Positions 3,565 to 31,915 are shown, counted from the stretch's first letter. The stretch is DNA of 64,000 nucleotides from Candidatus Uhrbacteria bacterium GW2011_GWE2_46_68 (GCA_001002765.1 LCMS01000007.1:8170-72169); one strand, 5' to 3'. Notes: generated by a model from the sequence alone, not told the origin. Made by a program: numbers and translations.

Positions 3565-3584
3565 CCGCGCAGCTTGCTGCGCGG
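3565..3584. repeat. GC-rich palindromic hairpin CCGCGCAGC-TT-GCTGCGCGG (copy 1)
   Basis: Perfect palindrome inside the IR-bounded element; a second near-identical copy lies 240 bp downstream. Confidence 0.55.
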
Positions 3585-15423: not shown

Positions 15424-16319
15424 CACGCCGACCGCGTCCTATTCTCCGCTTTCAAAAAACGCAATATGCGCGTCGACGATTTCAAAATCCTTATTTTCGT
15501 CATACTCCTCCTTGTTTTTGGAAAAAAATACTTCCTTGGTTGGTACTTATTTTTCTTTTCTTTTCTTTTTTGCTCTGGGTGGTTTTTGGCTCGCCCATTT
15601 TCCGCATCACTCAAGTCACCCTACAAGGAGCAAGCCCTTCTTCTTCCGGTGAACTGCAAATCCAAGTGGATTCTTTTCTTTCCACACGTCGTTTTCTTTT
15701 TTTTCACAATCACAATCATTGGTTATTCGATGAGGAATCATGTCGATCTTATCTTGAACAATTTTATGCGTTTGAAACGCTGATATTTGAATTCATTGAT
15801 CTTCATCAATTGTTTATCACCGTGCAAGAAAAAACTTCTTCCTTCCTCTGGGAAACCGACAATCATACCTTTGTCGTTGATCTACAAGGAACCGTGGTGC
15901 GTGAAATAACCCCCACAGAACAACAATGGCTCACCTCTGCTGCGCCTCCTGCGGAAAACGACCCCCTCCCCGAAGAACAACAGTCTTTTTTAAAACTTCC
16001 TCGTTTTCGTGATCTTAACAATGCTCCCATTGCTCCGGGTCTTGTTGTGGCTTCCCGGGAAGAAATCACTTCCATTTTTTCTTTTCAGCAAACGCTCACA
16101 ACACTCTCTATCCCTTTTTTGGAAACACAAATCGATCGACTTTCAGGAAAATGGATTGGGATCCTGACAAGTGACGGATATCTGGTGTTATTTGATGCGG
16201 CGGGAGATGTACAAGCACAAGCGATGCGACTGCAAAGTGTATTGAAAGAATCCATCCCCGATCCTTCTGTCTTAGATTATATCGACTTACGCTTTGGAGA
16301 CCATGTATACTTTAAGTGA
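15420..16319 (+). CDS. FtsQ/DivIB-like POTRA-domain membrane protein (putative)
   Basis: Basic cytoplasmic N-terminus, one TM helix, then a POTRA-like pattern (FRITQVTLQG..., FVVDLQGTVV); directly downstream of alr with ATGA overlap. Confidence 0.5.
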   Translation: MTRRPRPILRFQKTQYARRRFQNPYFRHTPPCFWKKILPWLVLIFLFFSFLLWVVFGSPIFRITQVTLQGASPSSSGELQIQVDSFLSTRRFLFFHNHNHWLFDEESCRSYLEQFYAFETLIFEFIDLHQLFITVQEKTSSFLWETDNHTFVVDLQGTVVREITPTEQQWLTSAAPPAENDPLPEEQQSFLKLPRFRDLNNAPIAPGLVVASREEITSIFSFQQTLTTLSIPFLETQIDRLSGKWIGILTSDGYLVLFDAAGDVQAQAMRLQSVLKESIPDPSVLDYIDLRFGDHVYFK

Positions 16320-16354
16320 TAGAATCCGTCTGCCACCACTCACAATAATTTCAA

Positions 16355-17644
16355 ATGATTCCTATGAAAACCATTTTTTCTTACGACAAACGATATCTTT
16401 GGACAAAAGGGGAGAGGAGTCTTTCCAAAATCGCTTTCCGCCAACTTCTACAGACAAAAACAAAAGGGGCTGTGGAAACCGTGAGAAAAAATCTCATGAC
16501 CCATGAAACGTCGGTTGTTTCTTTACCGTTTGCTTCTACAGAAGAAATACAATCGTGGGCTTTTCATATCCAGAAAACCTATACTCACCTTTTAGTGATT
16601 GCCACGGGTGGATCGAGTTTGGGTGCACAGGCAATAATACATGCCATTGCAGGGAGCACTTCAAAAACCAAGGTGCTTTTTCTTTCCAATCCTGATCCGG
16701 ATGAATACAGACGTATCACAAAAGGATTACCTTGGGTAACCACCGGTGTTTTGGTTATTTCAAAGTCTGGAAAGACGCTTGAGGTACTTTCTCTTTTTCT
16801 TCTTGTGCGCGAGCAACTCCAAAAAAAATTGGGAAAGCAACACACTTCTCATCTTTTTATTTTAACCCAATTTGATGAAAATCCTCTTTACCTTTTTGCA
16901 AAAGAACAAGGGTATACTCTTTTGCCTCATGTTGATATCGGTGGACGATTTTCCGTTCTTTCTTCTGTGGGTCTTCTTCCGGCAGCGGTATCGGGAGTTC
17001 CCATTGCCGATCTTTTAAAGGGAGCAGCCGATCTTTTAGGAGAGTATCAAAAGCAAGGATTCTCACATGCGGTGAGTCATTTTGTCACGGCCCAATACCT
17101 TGCCTACACGCTTGGAAAAACAGAACAGATCCTCATGCCTTATACGGAACGTTTGACACTCTTTACCAAATGGTACCGACAATTGTGGGCAGAATCTCTT
17201 GGGAAAGAACGGCGGGGAAGGGGAGTGGGTCCTACCCCCATTGATGCCTTGGGGACTGTGGATCAACATTCACAAATCCAGCTTTACAATCAAGGATTGA
17301 AAAACAAAATTTTAACATTTATAGAACTGACAAATTTTGATGAAGAGTCTCCTGTTCTTCGGAAGATTGCTGGGCTCCCTGACGCATTTAAAGAGGCTGC
17401 AAGCCCCCTTTCACTGATCGTGCGAGCTTCCTGTCGTGGAACGGCCTGCGCATCTGCTACACACGAAAGTCCGGGAGGAATTCTTTCCGTTCCAAAACTT
17501 GATGCTTATCATCTTGGAGCATTATTCCTATTTTTTGAACTGGCCGTTATTTTGTATGCGGAGCTTCTTCAGGTGAACCCCTATGACCAGCCGGGTGTAG
17601 AAGAAGGAAAAAGACAAATCAAAAAATTATTATCTTCCTTATGA
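16355..17644 (+). CDS. pgi: glucose-6-phosphate isomerase
   Basis: 429 aa; SIS-domain motifs LVIATGGSSLGAQA and VISKSGKTLE; DQHSQIQLYNQG. Confidence 0.9.
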   Translation: MIPMKTIFSYDKRYLWTKGERSLSKIAFRQLLQTKTKGAVETVRKNLMTHETSVVSLPFASTEEIQSWAFHIQKTYTHLLVIATGGSSLGAQAIIHAIAGSTSKTKVLFLSNPDPDEYRRITKGLPWVTTGVLVISKSGKTLEVLSLFLLVREQLQKKLGKQHTSHLFILTQFDENPLYLFAKEQGYTLLPHVDIGGRFSVLSSVGLLPAAVSGVPIADLLKGAADLLGEYQKQGFSHAVSHFVTAQYLAYTLGKTEQILMPYTERLTLFTKWYRQLWAESLGKERRGRGVGPTPIDALGTVDQHSQIQLYNQGLKNKILTFIELTNFDEESPVLRKIAGLPDAFKEAASPLSLIVRASCRGTACASATHESPGGILSVPKLDAYHLGALFLFFELAVILYAELLQVNPYDQPGVEEGKRQIKKLLSSL

Positions 17645-27775: not shown

Positions 27776-29149
27776 ATGTTTCCTTTTTCACACTCTTCCC
27801 GTCGCGATGGTATAGATCGATCACCTTCCGAATCCGTCGCTCATCCCTTTGCCGCCCCTGCGGAGGCAGTCCCGCCTGTGGCGGATCCCGCCGTAGGCGG
27901 GAGGGTCCGGCGTACTTCGGCAAACCTAAGCGAAGCCATCATGGATTCGGTTTCAAGTGTCCGTGATTCTCTTCACGAACGTTATCGCTCACACTTCAAT
28001 ATTCTCCGCAGGGAGATTATTGATTTTACAAAAGCTCACGACATTCCAATAGAATCTCTTGCCAAACCAGATCTCCTCCGTGAAGCTGCCGGCAAACTCT
28101 CCACCCAAGATCTTGAGCGACTTGCCAATCTTCTTGAACGCTTTGAGTACCTCATTGTCAAAAAAGAACCTGGGAAAGAAAAACTCCCCGAACATCTTCA
28201 AGAAATTGAGCGTCTTTACCATCTTGAGGATCAATACACTTCCCAAGTGACATTTCTTGAATACGTAGGGATTCTCAAAGAAGGAGCCATTATTGGGATA
28301 GATGGTCACGAGTACCCCATCCCAAAGCTTGAACAAATAGCTCTCCGTCTATTTGAACGCCGTGGCGAACTTTCCGCTAAGCACGACCAAGGTTTTACCA
28401 AACTTCTTTTGGTTCCTTTTGGAATGAACCTCGATATGCTTATCTCCACTCTCAAACAATTCCTTCTGGATTATAAAGGGTCCCATCCTGATTTTATGTT
28501 TGACACAGATGATCCCATCTCAAACATAAGAAAGCGCCTGAAAAGATCCGATACTACGGACACAGAAGCTTTTCAAAATGCAAATGGAGGAGATCATCAA
28601 GAACTTGTTTACTACCCACTGTTTTTTAATGAAAATCATCAAGGTAAAACAAAAACGAAAATCCTTGAAGATCAAAGTGTTAACCCAGCTTCCTTTCCTG
28701 GCTGGACAGTCCATTTGTTTCAACCTTCTGATCCTTCAAATCAACATTCCCTAGGCTTTGCCCCCATTCCCGAAGAAAAAGGAACAACCCAGGGAAATGA
28801 AATTCCTCGACAAGATTTGAAAACAGGAAAATACAGCTGTGAATATCTCGATATTCTTGGAAGTGCGAAACAACAAGATTCTCCTTATTGTCATGAATCC
28901 GGCCTCACCCCAGAGGACTGGATTAGTGCTTTCATGATGCATCTTCATGAAACCGGAAAACCTTTAGACGAGAATAAAAGTTGTTATCTTGTGGGAGCTT
29001 TTTTCCCTTCCCTTGGTATTCCGCGAGCTTCTTGGAGTATAGATTATATGGACGGGCGTAGTTATGGGAGTAATCGTGTATCTTTGAATATTCAATATAT
29101 TCACGGGACATCTTCTGACATAGGCTCTCGTTTTTCAGTGATTATTTAG
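27776..29149 (+). CDS. tandem paralog 1 of an unrecognised protein family
   Basis: ATG at 27776 (the ORF-track start at 27752 is TTG); conserved core EAIMDSVSSVRDSL...DLERLANLLERFEYL...GFTKLLLVPFGM shared with the next two genes; no signal peptide. Confidence 0.7.
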   Translation: MFPFSHSSRRDGIDRSPSESVAHPFAAPAEAVPPVADPAVGGRVRRTSANLSEAIMDSVSSVRDSLHERYRSHFNILRREIIDFTKAHDIPIESLAKPDLLREAAGKLSTQDLERLANLLERFEYLIVKKEPGKEKLPEHLQEIERLYHLEDQYTSQVTFLEYVGILKEGAIIGIDGHEYPIPKLEQIALRLFERRGELSAKHDQGFTKLLLVPFGMNLDMLISTLKQFLLDYKGSHPDFMFDTDDPISNIRKRLKRSDTTDTEAFQNANGGDHQELVYYPLFFNENHQGKTKTKILEDQSVNPASFPGWTVHLFQPSDPSNQHSLGFAPIPEEKGTTQGNEIPRQDLKTGKYSCEYLDILGSAKQQDSPYCHESGLTPEDWISAFMMHLHETGKPLDENKSCYLVGAFFPSLGIPRASWSIDYMDGRSYGSNRVSLNIQYIHGTSSDIGSRFSVII

Positions 29150-29157
29150 CTCTATTT

Positions 29158-30624
29158 ATGTCTCCTCTCCGTTCATCTTTCGAATCCACCCCATCCGTCA
29201 TCCCCACAGAGGCACATTCCTCCAATGACCGCCATCCCCGCGGAGGCGGGGATCCATCGTCTTCTGCGCTTCTTGGCGAAGCCATCATGGATTCTGTTTC
29301 AAGTGTCCGTGATTCTCTTCCCGAACGTTATCGCTCACACTTCAATATTCTCCGCAGCGAGATTATTGATTTCACAAAAGCTCACGGGATTCCAAAAGAA
29401 TCTCTTGGCAAGCCTGACCTCCTCCGCGAGGCGACCTGTAAACTTTCCACTTCAGATCTTGAACGACTTGCCAATCTTCTCGAACGCTTTGAGTATCTTG
29501 TGAAACACAAAGAACTCATGAAAGAAGACTATACTGAAGCCCTCGAGTATGTGGAGAAGTATTATCACCTCAAAAAGCAATACGATTCCCAAGTCTCCCT
29601 TCTTGAACAAGTAGGTATTCTTCATCCAAAGAAAAAATCAAAGCACATACAAAAACTTTCTACTTTTTTTCGCTCCCTTCTTCCTTATGGAAAAAAGAAA
29701 AGACCCGAAGTTTCAACTGTTCCTGAGACCCCAGAGATACTTTGTATAACTGGTATTGATGACAACGAGTATCCCATTCCCACACTTGAGCAGATTGCTT
29801 CTCGTCTCTTTGAGCGTCGTGAAACTCTAAAAACCAAACACGACCAAGGCTTTACCAAACTCCTCCTTGTTCCCTTTGGGATGAGTCTTGATAGTCTCCG
29901 AGAAACACTCAAACAATTCCTTCTTAAGTATAAGAAGGGTCATCCCTCTTTTGGTCTTGATACTGATAATCCTCTCTACACATGGTTAAACTATCAGGGA
30001 GCAGACATGGGGGATTTCCCAAACCTTGTCTATTATCCACAGTTTCTTACAAAAAAAGGTCATGGAGGGAAGACAAAAGCACAGATACTCAAAGAACAAT
30101 CCGAAGGACAATGGACCCCTGCCTTCGCAGGGGTGGCAGGAGGGAGTGGAACAAGGTTCCATGGCTGGATCGTTCATCTTCTCCAACCATCAAACCCAGA
30201 CTCACAAGACATCGAAGTTCCCATGGGCTTTGCCCTTATTCCTCGTGAAGGCCAAGAAACACCCAAAGGTGACCTCACCCCTCGTCCTTCTCTTGAAGCA
30301 GGTAAATCTCCTGATGAATATCTTTCCATTCTTCAAAAAGCTCAAGATGACAAAGGCTCTCCCTATCATGGTGAAACAGGCATGACTCCCGAAGATTGGA
30401 TCATGGCCTTTATGCTTCATCTTTCTGAAACAGGAAAACCACTGGACAACTTTGCAAATGGCATGGAGAGCATCTCTTACCTTACGGGAGCTTTTTTTCT
30501 TTCTTCCAGCCTTGTGCCAGGCGTGTATTGGAGCAGTGTTGATGATGGTCGGGCTTTTCTTGGCGGGGACGGATATTACGATCGAGCCAGCAATTTCGGC
30601 GCGCGATCTTCGGTGATCGTTTAA
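29158..30624 (+). CDS. tandem paralog 2 of the same family
   Basis: 488 aa; starts 8 nt after paralog 1; ends ...ARSSVIV-stop. Confidence 0.75.
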   Translation: MSPLRSSFESTPSVIPTEAHSSNDRHPRGGGDPSSSALLGEAIMDSVSSVRDSLPERYRSHFNILRSEIIDFTKAHGIPKESLGKPDLLREATCKLSTSDLERLANLLERFEYLVKHKELMKEDYTEALEYVEKYYHLKKQYDSQVSLLEQVGILHPKKKSKHIQKLSTFFRSLLPYGKKKRPEVSTVPETPEILCITGIDDNEYPIPTLEQIASRLFERRETLKTKHDQGFTKLLLVPFGMSLDSLRETLKQFLLKYKKGHPSFGLDTDNPLYTWLNYQGADMGDFPNLVYYPQFLTKKGHGGKTKAQILKEQSEGQWTPAFAGVAGGSGTRFHGWIVHLLQPSNPDSQDIEVPMGFALIPREGQETPKGDLTPRPSLEAGKSPDEYLSILQKAQDDKGSPYHGETGMTPEDWIMAFMLHLSETGKPLDNFANGMESISYLTGAFFLSSSLVPGVYWSSVDDGRAFLGGDGYYDRASNFGARSSVIV

Positions 30625-30630
30625 TCTTTG

Positions 30631-31915
30631 ATGTCTATGTCTCTTTTTCGACCAACTTTTGAATCCTCTCCCTCCGACACCCCTGCGGAGGCAGGGGTCC
30701 AGCGTACTTCGGCAAACTTCCACGAAGCCATCATGGATTCGATTTCAAGTGTTCGCGATTCTCTTCCCAAACAACACCGCGCGCACTTTGAAACTCTGCG
30801 TCAAGAGATCATCATTTTTACCGAGGTTCACGGGATTCCAAAAGAATCTCTTGGCAAGCCCGACCTCCTGCGCGAGGTGACCGGCAAACTCTCCACTTCA
30901 GATCTTGAGCGACTTGCCAATCTTCTCGAACGTTTTGAATATCTGCTTAAGAATGGGGAACCAAAGAAAGAAGAGATAGACCTTGTCAAAGCCATTGAGT
31001 ATGCAAAGGAGCATTATCATCTTCGTGAGCAATACGATTCTCAAGTAGAGCTTCTTGAGGAAGTGGGCATCCTTAAAGAAGGAGTCATCCTAGGCATAGA
31101 CGGTAACACCTATCCCATTCCCACCTTGGAACAAATAGCCGTCCGTCTTTTTGAACGACGTGAGACTCTCGAGACTAAACACAACCAAGGCTTTACCAAA
31201 CTCCTCCTCGTTCCCTTTGGCATGAGTCTTGATAGTCTCCAAGAAACACTCGAACAATTTCTTCTCGAGTACAAGAAGAATAATCCCTCCTTTAATCTAA
31301 ATATGGATGATCCTCTCTGCACATGGTCAGTATATCAAAGAGCAGACATCGGAGATTCCCCCAAGCTTGTCTATGAGCCACAGTCTTTTACAGAAGAAGG
31401 TCATGGGGGGAAGACAAAAGCACAGATACTCGAAGAACAATCCGAAGGACGATGGACCCCTGCCTTTGCAGGGGTGAAAGGAGAGAAGGGATTGGGAACC
31501 CCAGGTTGGACTGTTCATCTTCTCCAACCATCAAACCCGAACGAACAAGACATCGAAACTCCCAAAGGCTTTGCTCCCATTCCCAGAGAAGGACGGGGAA
31601 CACCTCAAGAAAATCTCGTCCCTCGACATCCCCTTGAAGCAGGTAAATCTCCCAATGAATATCTTTCCATTCTTCAAAATGCTCAAGGTGATAAAGACTC
31701 TCCCTATCATGGTGAAACAGGCATGACTCCCGAAGATTGGATCGAACCCCACAAACAAAGAATGTATCTCTTACCTTACAGGAGCTTTTTTTCGTTCCTC
31801 CATCGCTGTGCCTTGCATGTATTGGTGTCGCGGCAATCGTCAGGCCGACCTCGACAGGGATGATCCTCGTATTCGGGATGGGAACATTGGTTTGCGGTCT
31901 TCGGTGATCGTTTAA
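30631..31915 (+). pseudogene. tandem paralog 3; apparent frameshift near 31740-31765
   Basis: Matches paralog 2 through ...GETGMTPEDWI, then the frame slips relative to paralog 2. The conserved C-terminus (ISYLTGAFF...DDPRIRDGNIGLRSSVIV-stop at 31913-31915) continues in the +1 frame; the called ORF ends early at 31863. Confidence 0.5.

Follow-up and report, generated by a model that had tools for sequence, protein, structure and literature searches.

Repetitive extragenic palindromes (REPs) of the CGTC-1 class are defined by a CGTC tag that is often degenerate, with TGTC and CCTC tolerated, a stem of 8 bp whose first positions are A/T, a loop of 4 nt and a CCA tail (Di Nocera 2013, BMC Genomics 14:522). 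The Rickettsia palindromic element RPE-6 and the Neisseria repeat dRS3 have been equated with CGTC-1, and RPE-4 with CGTC-4; in-frame intragenic copies are documented for CGTC and GTAG REPs as well as for Rickettsia palindromic elements (RPEs), and CGTC REPs, for which there is no dedicated transposase, have been proposed to be going extinct generally (Di Nocera 2013). Short GC-rich hairpins of similar architecture occur in a stretch of 64,000 nt, hereafter the window, from Candidatus Uhrbacteria bacterium GW2011_GWE2_46_68 (LCMS01000007.1:8170-72169), a member of the Candidate Phyla Radiation (CPR). They lie within three tandem paralogs on the plus strand (27776-31915), the cluster studied here. 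These hairpins are probably copies of a CGTC-1-type REP lying in frame in a multi-copy gene family of Candidatus Uhrbacteria.

Anatomy of the element and its copies in the window

The element is 27 nt long. Its 4-nt tag is followed by a GC-rich stem of 8 bp, which starts with A:T and encloses a GGAG loop, and then by a CCA tail. Five copies are present in the three paralogs, three of them N-terminal and two, in paralogs 2 and 3, mid-gene and reversed. The features of the cluster, including a half copy and a nested insert, are as follows.

27776-29149, plus strand: paralog 1, 457 aa, assigned by open reading frame (ORF) and family membership
27854-27869, plus strand: 5' part of the REP of paralog 1, with arm GCCCCTGC, loop GGAG and GCAG, the first 4 nt of the 3' arm
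27870-27902, plus strand: nested insert of type B2 in paralog 1, 33 nt, TCCCGCC-TGT-GGCGGA then TCCCGCC-GTA-GGCGGGA; in frame, encoding VPPVADPAVGG
27903-27909, plus strand: remainder of the REP of paralog 1, GGGT (end of the 3' arm, 27903-27906) and tail CCG, by comparison with uninterrupted copies
29158-30624, plus strand: paralog 2, 488 aa, assigned by ORF and family membership
29196-29211, plus strand: half REP of paralog 2, with canonical tag CGTC, 5' arm ATCCCCAC and loop AGAG; encodes IPTEA
29230-29256, plus strand: intact N-terminal REP of paralog 2 in codon phase 1, encoding HPRGGGD; CGCC (29230-29233), ATCCCCGC (29234-29241), GGAG, GCGGGGAT (29246-29253), CCA (29254-29256)
30112-30138, minus strand: intact reversed REP in the mid-gene hot spot of paralog 2, TGCC-ACCCCTGC-GAAG-GCAGGGGT-CCA, encoding WTPAFAGV; palindrome at 30115-30134, loop CTTC on the plus strand
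30634-31915, plus strand: paralog 3, frameshifted by a deletion near 31745
30675-30701, plus strand: intact N-terminal REP of paralog 3 in phase 0, encoding TPAEAGV; CGAC, ACCCCTGC (30679-30686), GGAG, GCAGGGGT (30691-30698), CCA
31453-31479, minus strand: intact reversed REP in the mid-gene hot spot of paralog 3, TTTC-ACCCCTGC-AAAG-GCAGGGGT-CCA, encoding WTPAFAGV; palindrome at 31456-31475, loop CTTT on the plus strand

A preliminary description of the window, made from its sequence, had reported a perfect GGAG hairpin in every paralog. This holds for paralogs 2 and 3, whose 8-bp hairpins had been placed correctly, whereas the hairpin of paralog 1 (GCCCCTGC-GGAG-GCAG) is reduced to 4 bp, its 3' arm being split by a palindromic insert of 33 nt; the palindrome TCCCGCC-GTA-GGCGGGA, described at 27886-27902, is present and forms part of this insert. 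Between paralogs 2 and 3 the stems differ at two pairs, T:A versus C:G at position 2 and C:G versus T:A at position 6, instead of the single paired change first described, and both differences are compensated. The encoded peptides do differ, as had been stated, since the codon phase of the hairpin changes from paralog to paralog.

The two reversed copies and the half REP were absent from the preliminary description. All four intact copies of the window carry the CCA tail. The half REP of paralog 2 has lost its 3' arm, and the same truncated form recurs in two related contigs (L010 and L074). With up to three mismatches allowed, CCCYGCGGAGGCRGGG matched five times in the window (0.66 expected), always within the cluster, and none of 100 shuffles reached five matches; moreover, five of the nine distinct GC-rich perfect hairpins of at least 7 bp in the window fall within these 4 kb. 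No match to Rfam 15 with E ≤ 1 was obtained between 27000 and 32500, nor did any match in the window as a whole reach the gathering threshold. Intrinsic terminators do not account for the hairpins either, which are followed by CCAGCGTACTTCGG or CCATCGTC inside the ORFs instead of a run of T.

Probable affiliation with CGTC-1 REPs

A family alignment (A1) led to 75 metagenome loci (~850 kb) and to a data set of 121 unique N-terminal and 111 unique mid-gene regions. The stem measures 8 bp in all 42 unique intact copies, and the loop is GGAG in 36, AAAG in five and GAAG in one. As their first stem pair, 30 of these copies have A:U and four have G:U or G:C; the ATCCCCGC variant begins with A:T followed by T:A. 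The CCA tail is present in 36. The exact 18-mer CCCCTGCGGAGGCAGGGG occurs at no fewer than 119 loci in other phyla, in a scan of one genome per species. Among the matches listed, the hosts include Sphingomonas, Novosphingobium, Massilia, Planctomycetota, Dehalococcoidia, Desulfobacterales and others, with several copies per genome and frequently as inverted pairs 60-105 nt apart; a CGTC or TGTC tag flanks 79 of the 132 and a CCA tail 61 of the 132, with the consensus CGTC[G/A]-core-[C/T]CCA. A test for ORFs spanning these matches was uninformative, as high-GC genomes contain long spurious ORFs.

The Uhrbacteria element thus shares with CGTC-1 REPs, for example those of Sphingomonas wittichii, the 8-bp stem with its A:T start, the 4-nt loop, the CCA tail and, opposite the tail, a tag of 4 nt. 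Stem variants that are complementary within the family, in-frame intragenic copies and the lack of a known dedicated transposase are common to both, and copies with an identical 18-nt core exist in Sphingomonadales, Massilia, Planctomycetota and Dehalococcoidia. The likeness to in-frame palindromic insertions such as RPEs, noticed in the preliminary description, is borne out by this geometry, since the CGTC-1 class contains RPE-6, and by the identity of the core across phyla. The Uhrbacteria element differs from CGTC-1 REPs in having no close head-to-head dimers save in a few N-terminal clusters, and in its host, a CPR bacterium with a small genome.

Other described systems are less similar. 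RPEs (RPE-1, RPE-4 and RPE-6) are likewise palindromes lying in frame in genes and translated as extra segments, sometimes more than one per gene. RPEs, however, are spread across intergenic DNA and a large number of unrelated genes, some of them essential, whereas the Uhrbacteria element occupies one paralogous family; RPE-1 is also much longer (~100-150 bp). The dRS3 repeat (ATTCCC-N8-GGGAAT) has the same stem-loop architecture and differs in being intergenic and highly abundant. GTAG REPs and REPINs, which RAYT transposases (Y1 HUH) mobilise, are small hairpins with a terminal tetranucleotide as well, and one Y1_Tnp gene is found in a related contig; the main Uhrbacteria hairpin, in contrast, is of the CGTC type and lacks the GTAG tag.

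Two hot spots, four reading classes and three stem variants

A comparison of about 120 homologues from Candidatus Uhrbacteria reveals two hot spots with discrete states, the element being there in some members and missing in others. The N-terminal hot spot lies between the conserved motifs MSLFRPxxES and LxEAI(M/L), where some members carry one or more GC-rich hairpin cassettes, and the mid-gene hot spot between KTKxxILxEQ and PGWTVHLLQPS. Empty sites are known at both (MSLTRPSPEFTPSATLHEA and EQEDNQDSFPGW). The N-terminal basal form without insert reads MSLTRPSPEFTPSATLHEAILAS; the mid-gene basal form EQEDNQDSFPGW is exchanged in many members for a block with the reversed palindrome, read as TPAFAGV, TPASAGV or TPTSVGV. 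The states of the two sites combine freely. An invertible or mobile segment of 780 bp between the forward N-terminal and the reversed mid-gene copies was considered and rejected, as the sites vary independently and an inversion would destroy the ORF.

By site, orientation and phase the intact copies fall into four classes, with the peptides TPAEAGV (21 copies), HPRGGGD (9), GPLPPQGL (6) and TPA[FS]AGV or TPTSVGV (21). These peptides are unrelated to each other, rich in Pro, Ala and Gly, and set only by orientation and phase. The preliminary description had invoked selection on nucleic-acid structure. The four reading classes do indicate a constraint or an origin at the DNA level; ongoing selection on structure does not follow, since the palindromy would be inherited from the repeat.

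Three stem variants occur (ACCCCTGC, ACCCCCAC and ATCCCCGC), each with an exactly complementary arm. When sequences were chosen by the left arm and loop only, the variable dinucleotide TG, CA or CG was matched by its complement in 30, 13 and 11 cases, respectively, with five off-diagonal cases, and the covariation of the stem is hence robust to ascertainment. In the alignment of the 42 unique intact copies, which are related by descent and had been pre-selected for pairing (at most one mismatch), hence the recount above, 97% of the cells pair and 33 cells show double changes compared with 11 in shuffles. The covariation across homologues that the preliminary description called for is therefore found as far as complementarity is concerned; the pattern is that of three variants resembling REP sub-families and not of many independent compensatory events.

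Other N-terminal cassettes are hairpin dimers tagged with CGTC and having loops of 5-6 nt, for example CGTC-ATCCTGAA-CTTGA-TTCAGGAT ... ATCCCGGG...GACG, which encodes RHPELDSGS...DPGSKPGMTT.

Two further kinds of cassette were observed at the mid-gene hot spot. One, TNYKLPTLTPTQ (L035 10835, L030 10823, L072 10772), contains expansions of a (Thr-Pro)n or LTPTxT unit, e.g. TPTPTPTPTPTPTQ, which suggests slippage at this site. Another, ETPGQARGDNGRT, also varies by repeated units.

A second hairpin nested at a fixed position

In 22 unique copies a nested element of 33-36 nt, which starts with TCCCGCC-NNN-GGCGGR, breaks the 3' arm at one exact point, behind nucleotide 4 (GCAG^, GCGG^ or GTGG^, i.e. 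GYRG); paralog 1 of the window is one of these copies. Copies of each of the three stem variants, of either orientation and from either hot spot share this point of nesting, and nesting occurs in two codon phases (AEAVPPVAGSPDAEVRV versus GGGPACGGITGDRNEDP). An insert identical to that of paralog 1 is found reversed in the mid-gene hot spot of homologues. A blastn search with the insert of paralog 1 returned 18 copies inside the family and one partial copy outside.

With its 7-bp stem and 3-nt loop directly after GYRG, the nested insert fits the geometry and the degenerate tags of GTAG-type REPs, and it may use the arm of the first element as tag or target. Fixed-position nesting has a parallel in dRS3, which is a target site for the insertion of other elements; those are prophages and insertion sequences, not hairpins of 33-36 nt.

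The fixed position also bears on a protein-level account, in which selection favors a flexible linker rich in Pro, Ala and Gly and the palindromes are a by-product of codon choice. Such an account draws on the low complexity of the encoded peptides and on the location of the inserts in segments predicted with very low confidence. It is nevertheless very improbable: one palindrome of 20 nt gives four unrelated peptides depending on phase and orientation, the changes in the stem are complementary, non-coding repeats of other phyla contain the identical 18-mer, and the second hairpin is nested at one and the same nucleotide in two codon phases.

Coding status of the N-terminal region

It has been cautioned that many N-terminal "intragenic" REPs may in truth be extragenic (Di Nocera 2013). 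In a frame-blind search, the conserved start motif of the Uhrbacteria family shared the reading frame of the downstream anchor without exception (76 of 76 sequences), at 24 distances between 48 and 216 nt. The Met of the EAIMDS motif is replaced by Leu in 64 of 121 homologues, with no alternative start nearby, and the mid-gene copies are flanked by conserved coding sequence. On this pattern of conserved reading frame, the N-terminal region appears to be translated, with the conserved upstream start as the real one.

The preliminary description had offered a regulatory alternative, an mRNA hairpin in a 5' leader that hides a Shine-Dalgarno-like GGAGG, the true start then being the Met of EAIMDS. 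A GGAGG does lie in or beside the loop, the hairpins are found 55-90 nt downstream of the stop codon of the previous gene, and the caution quoted above applies to just such positions. Yet the in-frame upstream ATG motif at all 24 insert lengths, the Leu at the supposed start and the reversed copies in mid-gene together lead us to reject this proposal, which we find scarcely credible. In addition, over 40 nt separate GGAGG from the internal ATG, compared with the 5-10 nt upstream of the true start expected for an occluded ribosome binding site, many family members have no element at all, and the GGAG loop is common to REPs of unrelated phyla.

Distribution in the host genomes and arguments against the proposed affiliation

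Hairpins are concentrated in the family, with 124 in 207 kb of family-gene DNA compared with 75 in 707 kb outside. With the pattern at up to two mismatches, 63 matches were obtained inside the family and one chance-like match outside; for intact copies the figures are 42 and none. By blastn, types A, C, E, F and B1 had no match outside the family. The recurrence of the motif that the preliminary description had asked for is thus seen at the two hot spots of the homologues and in the five copies of the window, and nowhere outside the family in the partial genomes searched (~770 kb together).

Related small hairpin elements (types B, D and H) do occur outside the family, at the 3' ends of tRNA genes, in other ORFs and in 5' regions. 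The dispersed B-type hairpins have no consistent GTAG tag. The H-type element (PPFQGG...) lies at the 5' ends of two unrelated ORFs in one contig (L067) and as an in-frame linker in a DUF559-like/MiaA-like ORF in another (L072). These genomes therefore host small dispersed palindromic elements able to end up in ORFs.

An E. coli RayT probe was used to search 914 kb for a mobilising enzyme. Only one Y1_Tnp (IS200-like) gene was found (L028 16223-17092, Pfam E = 2e-14), and it is flanked by its own 27-bp inverted repeats, not by the hairpins of the family.

Several observations weigh against the assignment to CGTC-1 REPs. The tag is of the form YGCC in 29 of the 42 unique intact copies (TGCC 15, CGCC 14) and CGTC in only one, while CGTC-1 REPs carry CGTC or TGTC; canonical CGTC does precede the half copy at 29196 as well as the E-type copies and those of L035, and the systematic difference in the third base of the tag possibly stems from coding constraint (GCC = Ala). 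CGTC-1 REPs are dispersed and lie mostly downstream of genes, whereas the Uhrbacteria copies are found only at two sites in one gene family: no A- or C-type copy lies outside family genes in ~707 kb of flanks or in what remains of the 64-kb window. Within these genomes, then, the element does not form a dispersed extragenic repeat as the REP definition has it, and because of this confinement we do not call it a typical member of the class. Neither a target-site duplication nor a mobilising enzyme was identified for the REP copies. The folding check proposed in the preliminary description gave a clear signal for the composite structure of paralog 1 (z-score -3.15 against shuffles), but single hairpins, with z-scores of -0.5 to -1.7, are not outliers in their GC-rich context, and folding energy alone proves nothing for them. 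Owing to the shared descent of the copies, the covariation counts overstate the number of independent events. Finally, an AlphaFold model from an alignment of 31 sequences (mean pLDDT 49, pTM 0.29) was too poor for a fold search; both hot spots fall in stretches with pLDDT below 35 of this generally poor model, which gives a faint hint that they are disordered, tolerant segments.

Mosaicism and possible origin of the cassettes

The tandem paralogs are mosaics. Directly after the hot spot (29290-29360), paralogs 1 and 2 are 95-98% identical, paralogs 2 and 3 only 62-72%. A tandem pair in another contig (L050) has a core of 99.4% identity only from the anchor onward, homology beginning at CTCCAYGARGCC, and unrelated N-terminal cassettes. 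Past the tail, ~12 nt of 3' flank (CCAKCGTMCTTSGG) are common to N-terminal and mid-gene copies; some copies have therefore probably spread by the copying of larger blocks between sites or paralogs and not by transposition of the bare hairpin.

For the CGTC-1-type REPs proposed here, a few independent insertion events may have brought the elements into the two sites, where insertions would have survived only with a length divisible by three, without stop codons, and in segments that were dispensable and probably disordered. Duplication and gene conversion would then have spread and reshuffled the copies among the paralogs. The palindromy and the "compensatory" stem variants would be inherited from REP sub-families, possibly reinforced by arm-to-arm template switching or conversion, and we infer that they do not point to a regulatory RNA structure of use to the host gene. 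At present the element most likely has the passive role of a variable linker peptide, and the copies may act, as a side effect, as recombination-prone patches of homology.

A simpler history would start from a single ancient acquisition: one ancestral gene bearing a REP, followed by duplication, intragenic inverted duplication and gene conversion, with no transposition ever in the lineage. The absence of extragenic copies and of a dedicated transposase from the sampled contigs, the common flank CCAKCGTMCTTSGG, which suggests copying of larger blocks, and the proposed general extinction of CGTC REPs all agree with such a fossil. The four classes of site, orientation and phase speak against it, as do the several unrelated REP types at the N-terminal site (E, F and the dispersed D and H), the recurrence of the nested insertion and the mostly empty sites of deep-branching family members. 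We judge this history plausible but unlikely.

The hairpins could alternatively be functional recombination cassettes, kept as hot spots of recombination or replication stalling that shuffle the modules of the paralogs, a contingency system that would hence be confined to the family. Their confinement in the ~770 kb sampled, the free combination of states at the two sites, the abrupt change of identity tracts beside the hot spot (both in the paralogs of the window and in the L050 pair) and the large tandem family, with at least 10 copies on one contig of 158 kb, are all compatible with this proposal. It is quite improbable, however, given that no recombinase is linked to the family, that mosaicism is expected in any tandem family without special sites, that many paralogs lack the elements, and that the elements are ordinary REPs elsewhere. 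A related idea, to which we attach only a small chance, is a REP-driven contingency or variation system in which the REPs would persist in these CPR genomes solely within the coding sequence of the one family and, together with the hairpin that inserts after GYRG, would form self-renewing cassettes that diversify two protein segments and seed gene conversion among paralogs.

The host family and accompanying elements

The host proteins match no family in Pfam or NCBIfam. A protein search returned 307 relatives, and all named ones are from Candidatus Uhrbacteria, with several per genome; no relatives of the family were found in viral contigs, and E. coli genomes contain nothing similar to the hairpin region. 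The family is strongly expanded, the 158-kb contig mentioned above being Ga0209417_1000207 (L009, L007, L004), and another locus (L073) holds seven N-terminal family cores within 21 kb. For a genome of CPR size this copy number is a large investment in a protein of unknown function.

Two paralogs of the window have individual features. Compared with its intact counterpart P0056 (Candidatus Uhrbacteria GW2011_GWF2_46_218), paralog 3 is without the segment between EDWI and NPTNKEC and continues thereafter (31740-31915) in another frame up to RSSVIV*; this paralog is probably either a pseudogene or the product of an assembly error. An insert of 42 aa found only in paralog 2, HPKKKSKHIQKLSTFFRSLLPYGKKKRPEVSTVPETPEILCIT (29620-29745), is AT-rich and Lys-rich and forms no hairpin; paralogs 1 and 3 have KEGAIIG in its place.

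Among the dispersed elements, a hairpin of the TCCCGCC-NNN-GGCGGGA type, AGTCCCGCC-AAA-GGCGGGACT, abuts the 3' (CCA) end of tRNA-Ile(TAT) and tRNA-Val(GAC) genes (L001 5657-5677 and L007 16822-16842; also L001 5548 and L007 16608) and is followed by the repeated sequence ctagaatctagagtctagttactagattct. The H-type element is a palindrome of ~70-100 nt, with peptides of the PSISPLERGRN and PPFKGGDRGG type, located in L072 (4061-5422) between the DUF559-like and the MiaA-like parts. In L067 (19086-20144 and 20233-20943, minus strand) it supplies the first ~20 codons, MVAEAPATPSISPFERGRN, of the two neighboring ORFs, and it also serves as N-terminal cassette in some family members.

The Y1_Tnp protein of L028, IS200-like or RAYT-like and 289 aa long, is encoded between perfect 27-bp inverted repeats, GGTGTCAGGTCCGACTACGGACTTTTT (16180-17106), an arrangement resembling the "TIRYT" of Di Nocera et al. 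The same pair of repeats encloses ~190 bp elsewhere in the manner of a miniature inverted-repeat transposable element (L005 7053-7296, on the same contig as L071 20004-20247), and a solo copy lies at L030 12923. A further perfect hairpin, CCGCGCAG-CTTG-CTGCGCGG, is intergenic in the window (3565-3584), has no match in Rfam and is accompanied by ~25 nt of conserved flank, taccgcttaagtacgataggagggtatga; it recurs in both orientations in a related contig (L004 5665-5684 and 6161-6180).

Implications

In-frame palindromic repeats are already established, as RPEs and as intragenic GTAG and CGTC REPs. New are the CPR host, the restriction of the element to two hot spots in a single expanded family, its four modes of reading and the nesting at a fixed site. 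The affiliation proposed here would extend CGTC-type REPs to the Candidate Phyla Radiation, for which no earlier report was found in the literature searched. In annotation, the GC-rich hairpin "variable regions" of the Uhrbacteria family would be best treated as repeat-derived inserts, not as protein motifs or regulatory RNAs, and the upstream start codon should be kept. The findings bear on how CGTC REPs move without a known transposase and on why streamlined genomes might keep such repeats only where they are read through; if the REP-driven contingency system were real, it would offer a natural setting for working out the mobilisation of CGTC REPs.

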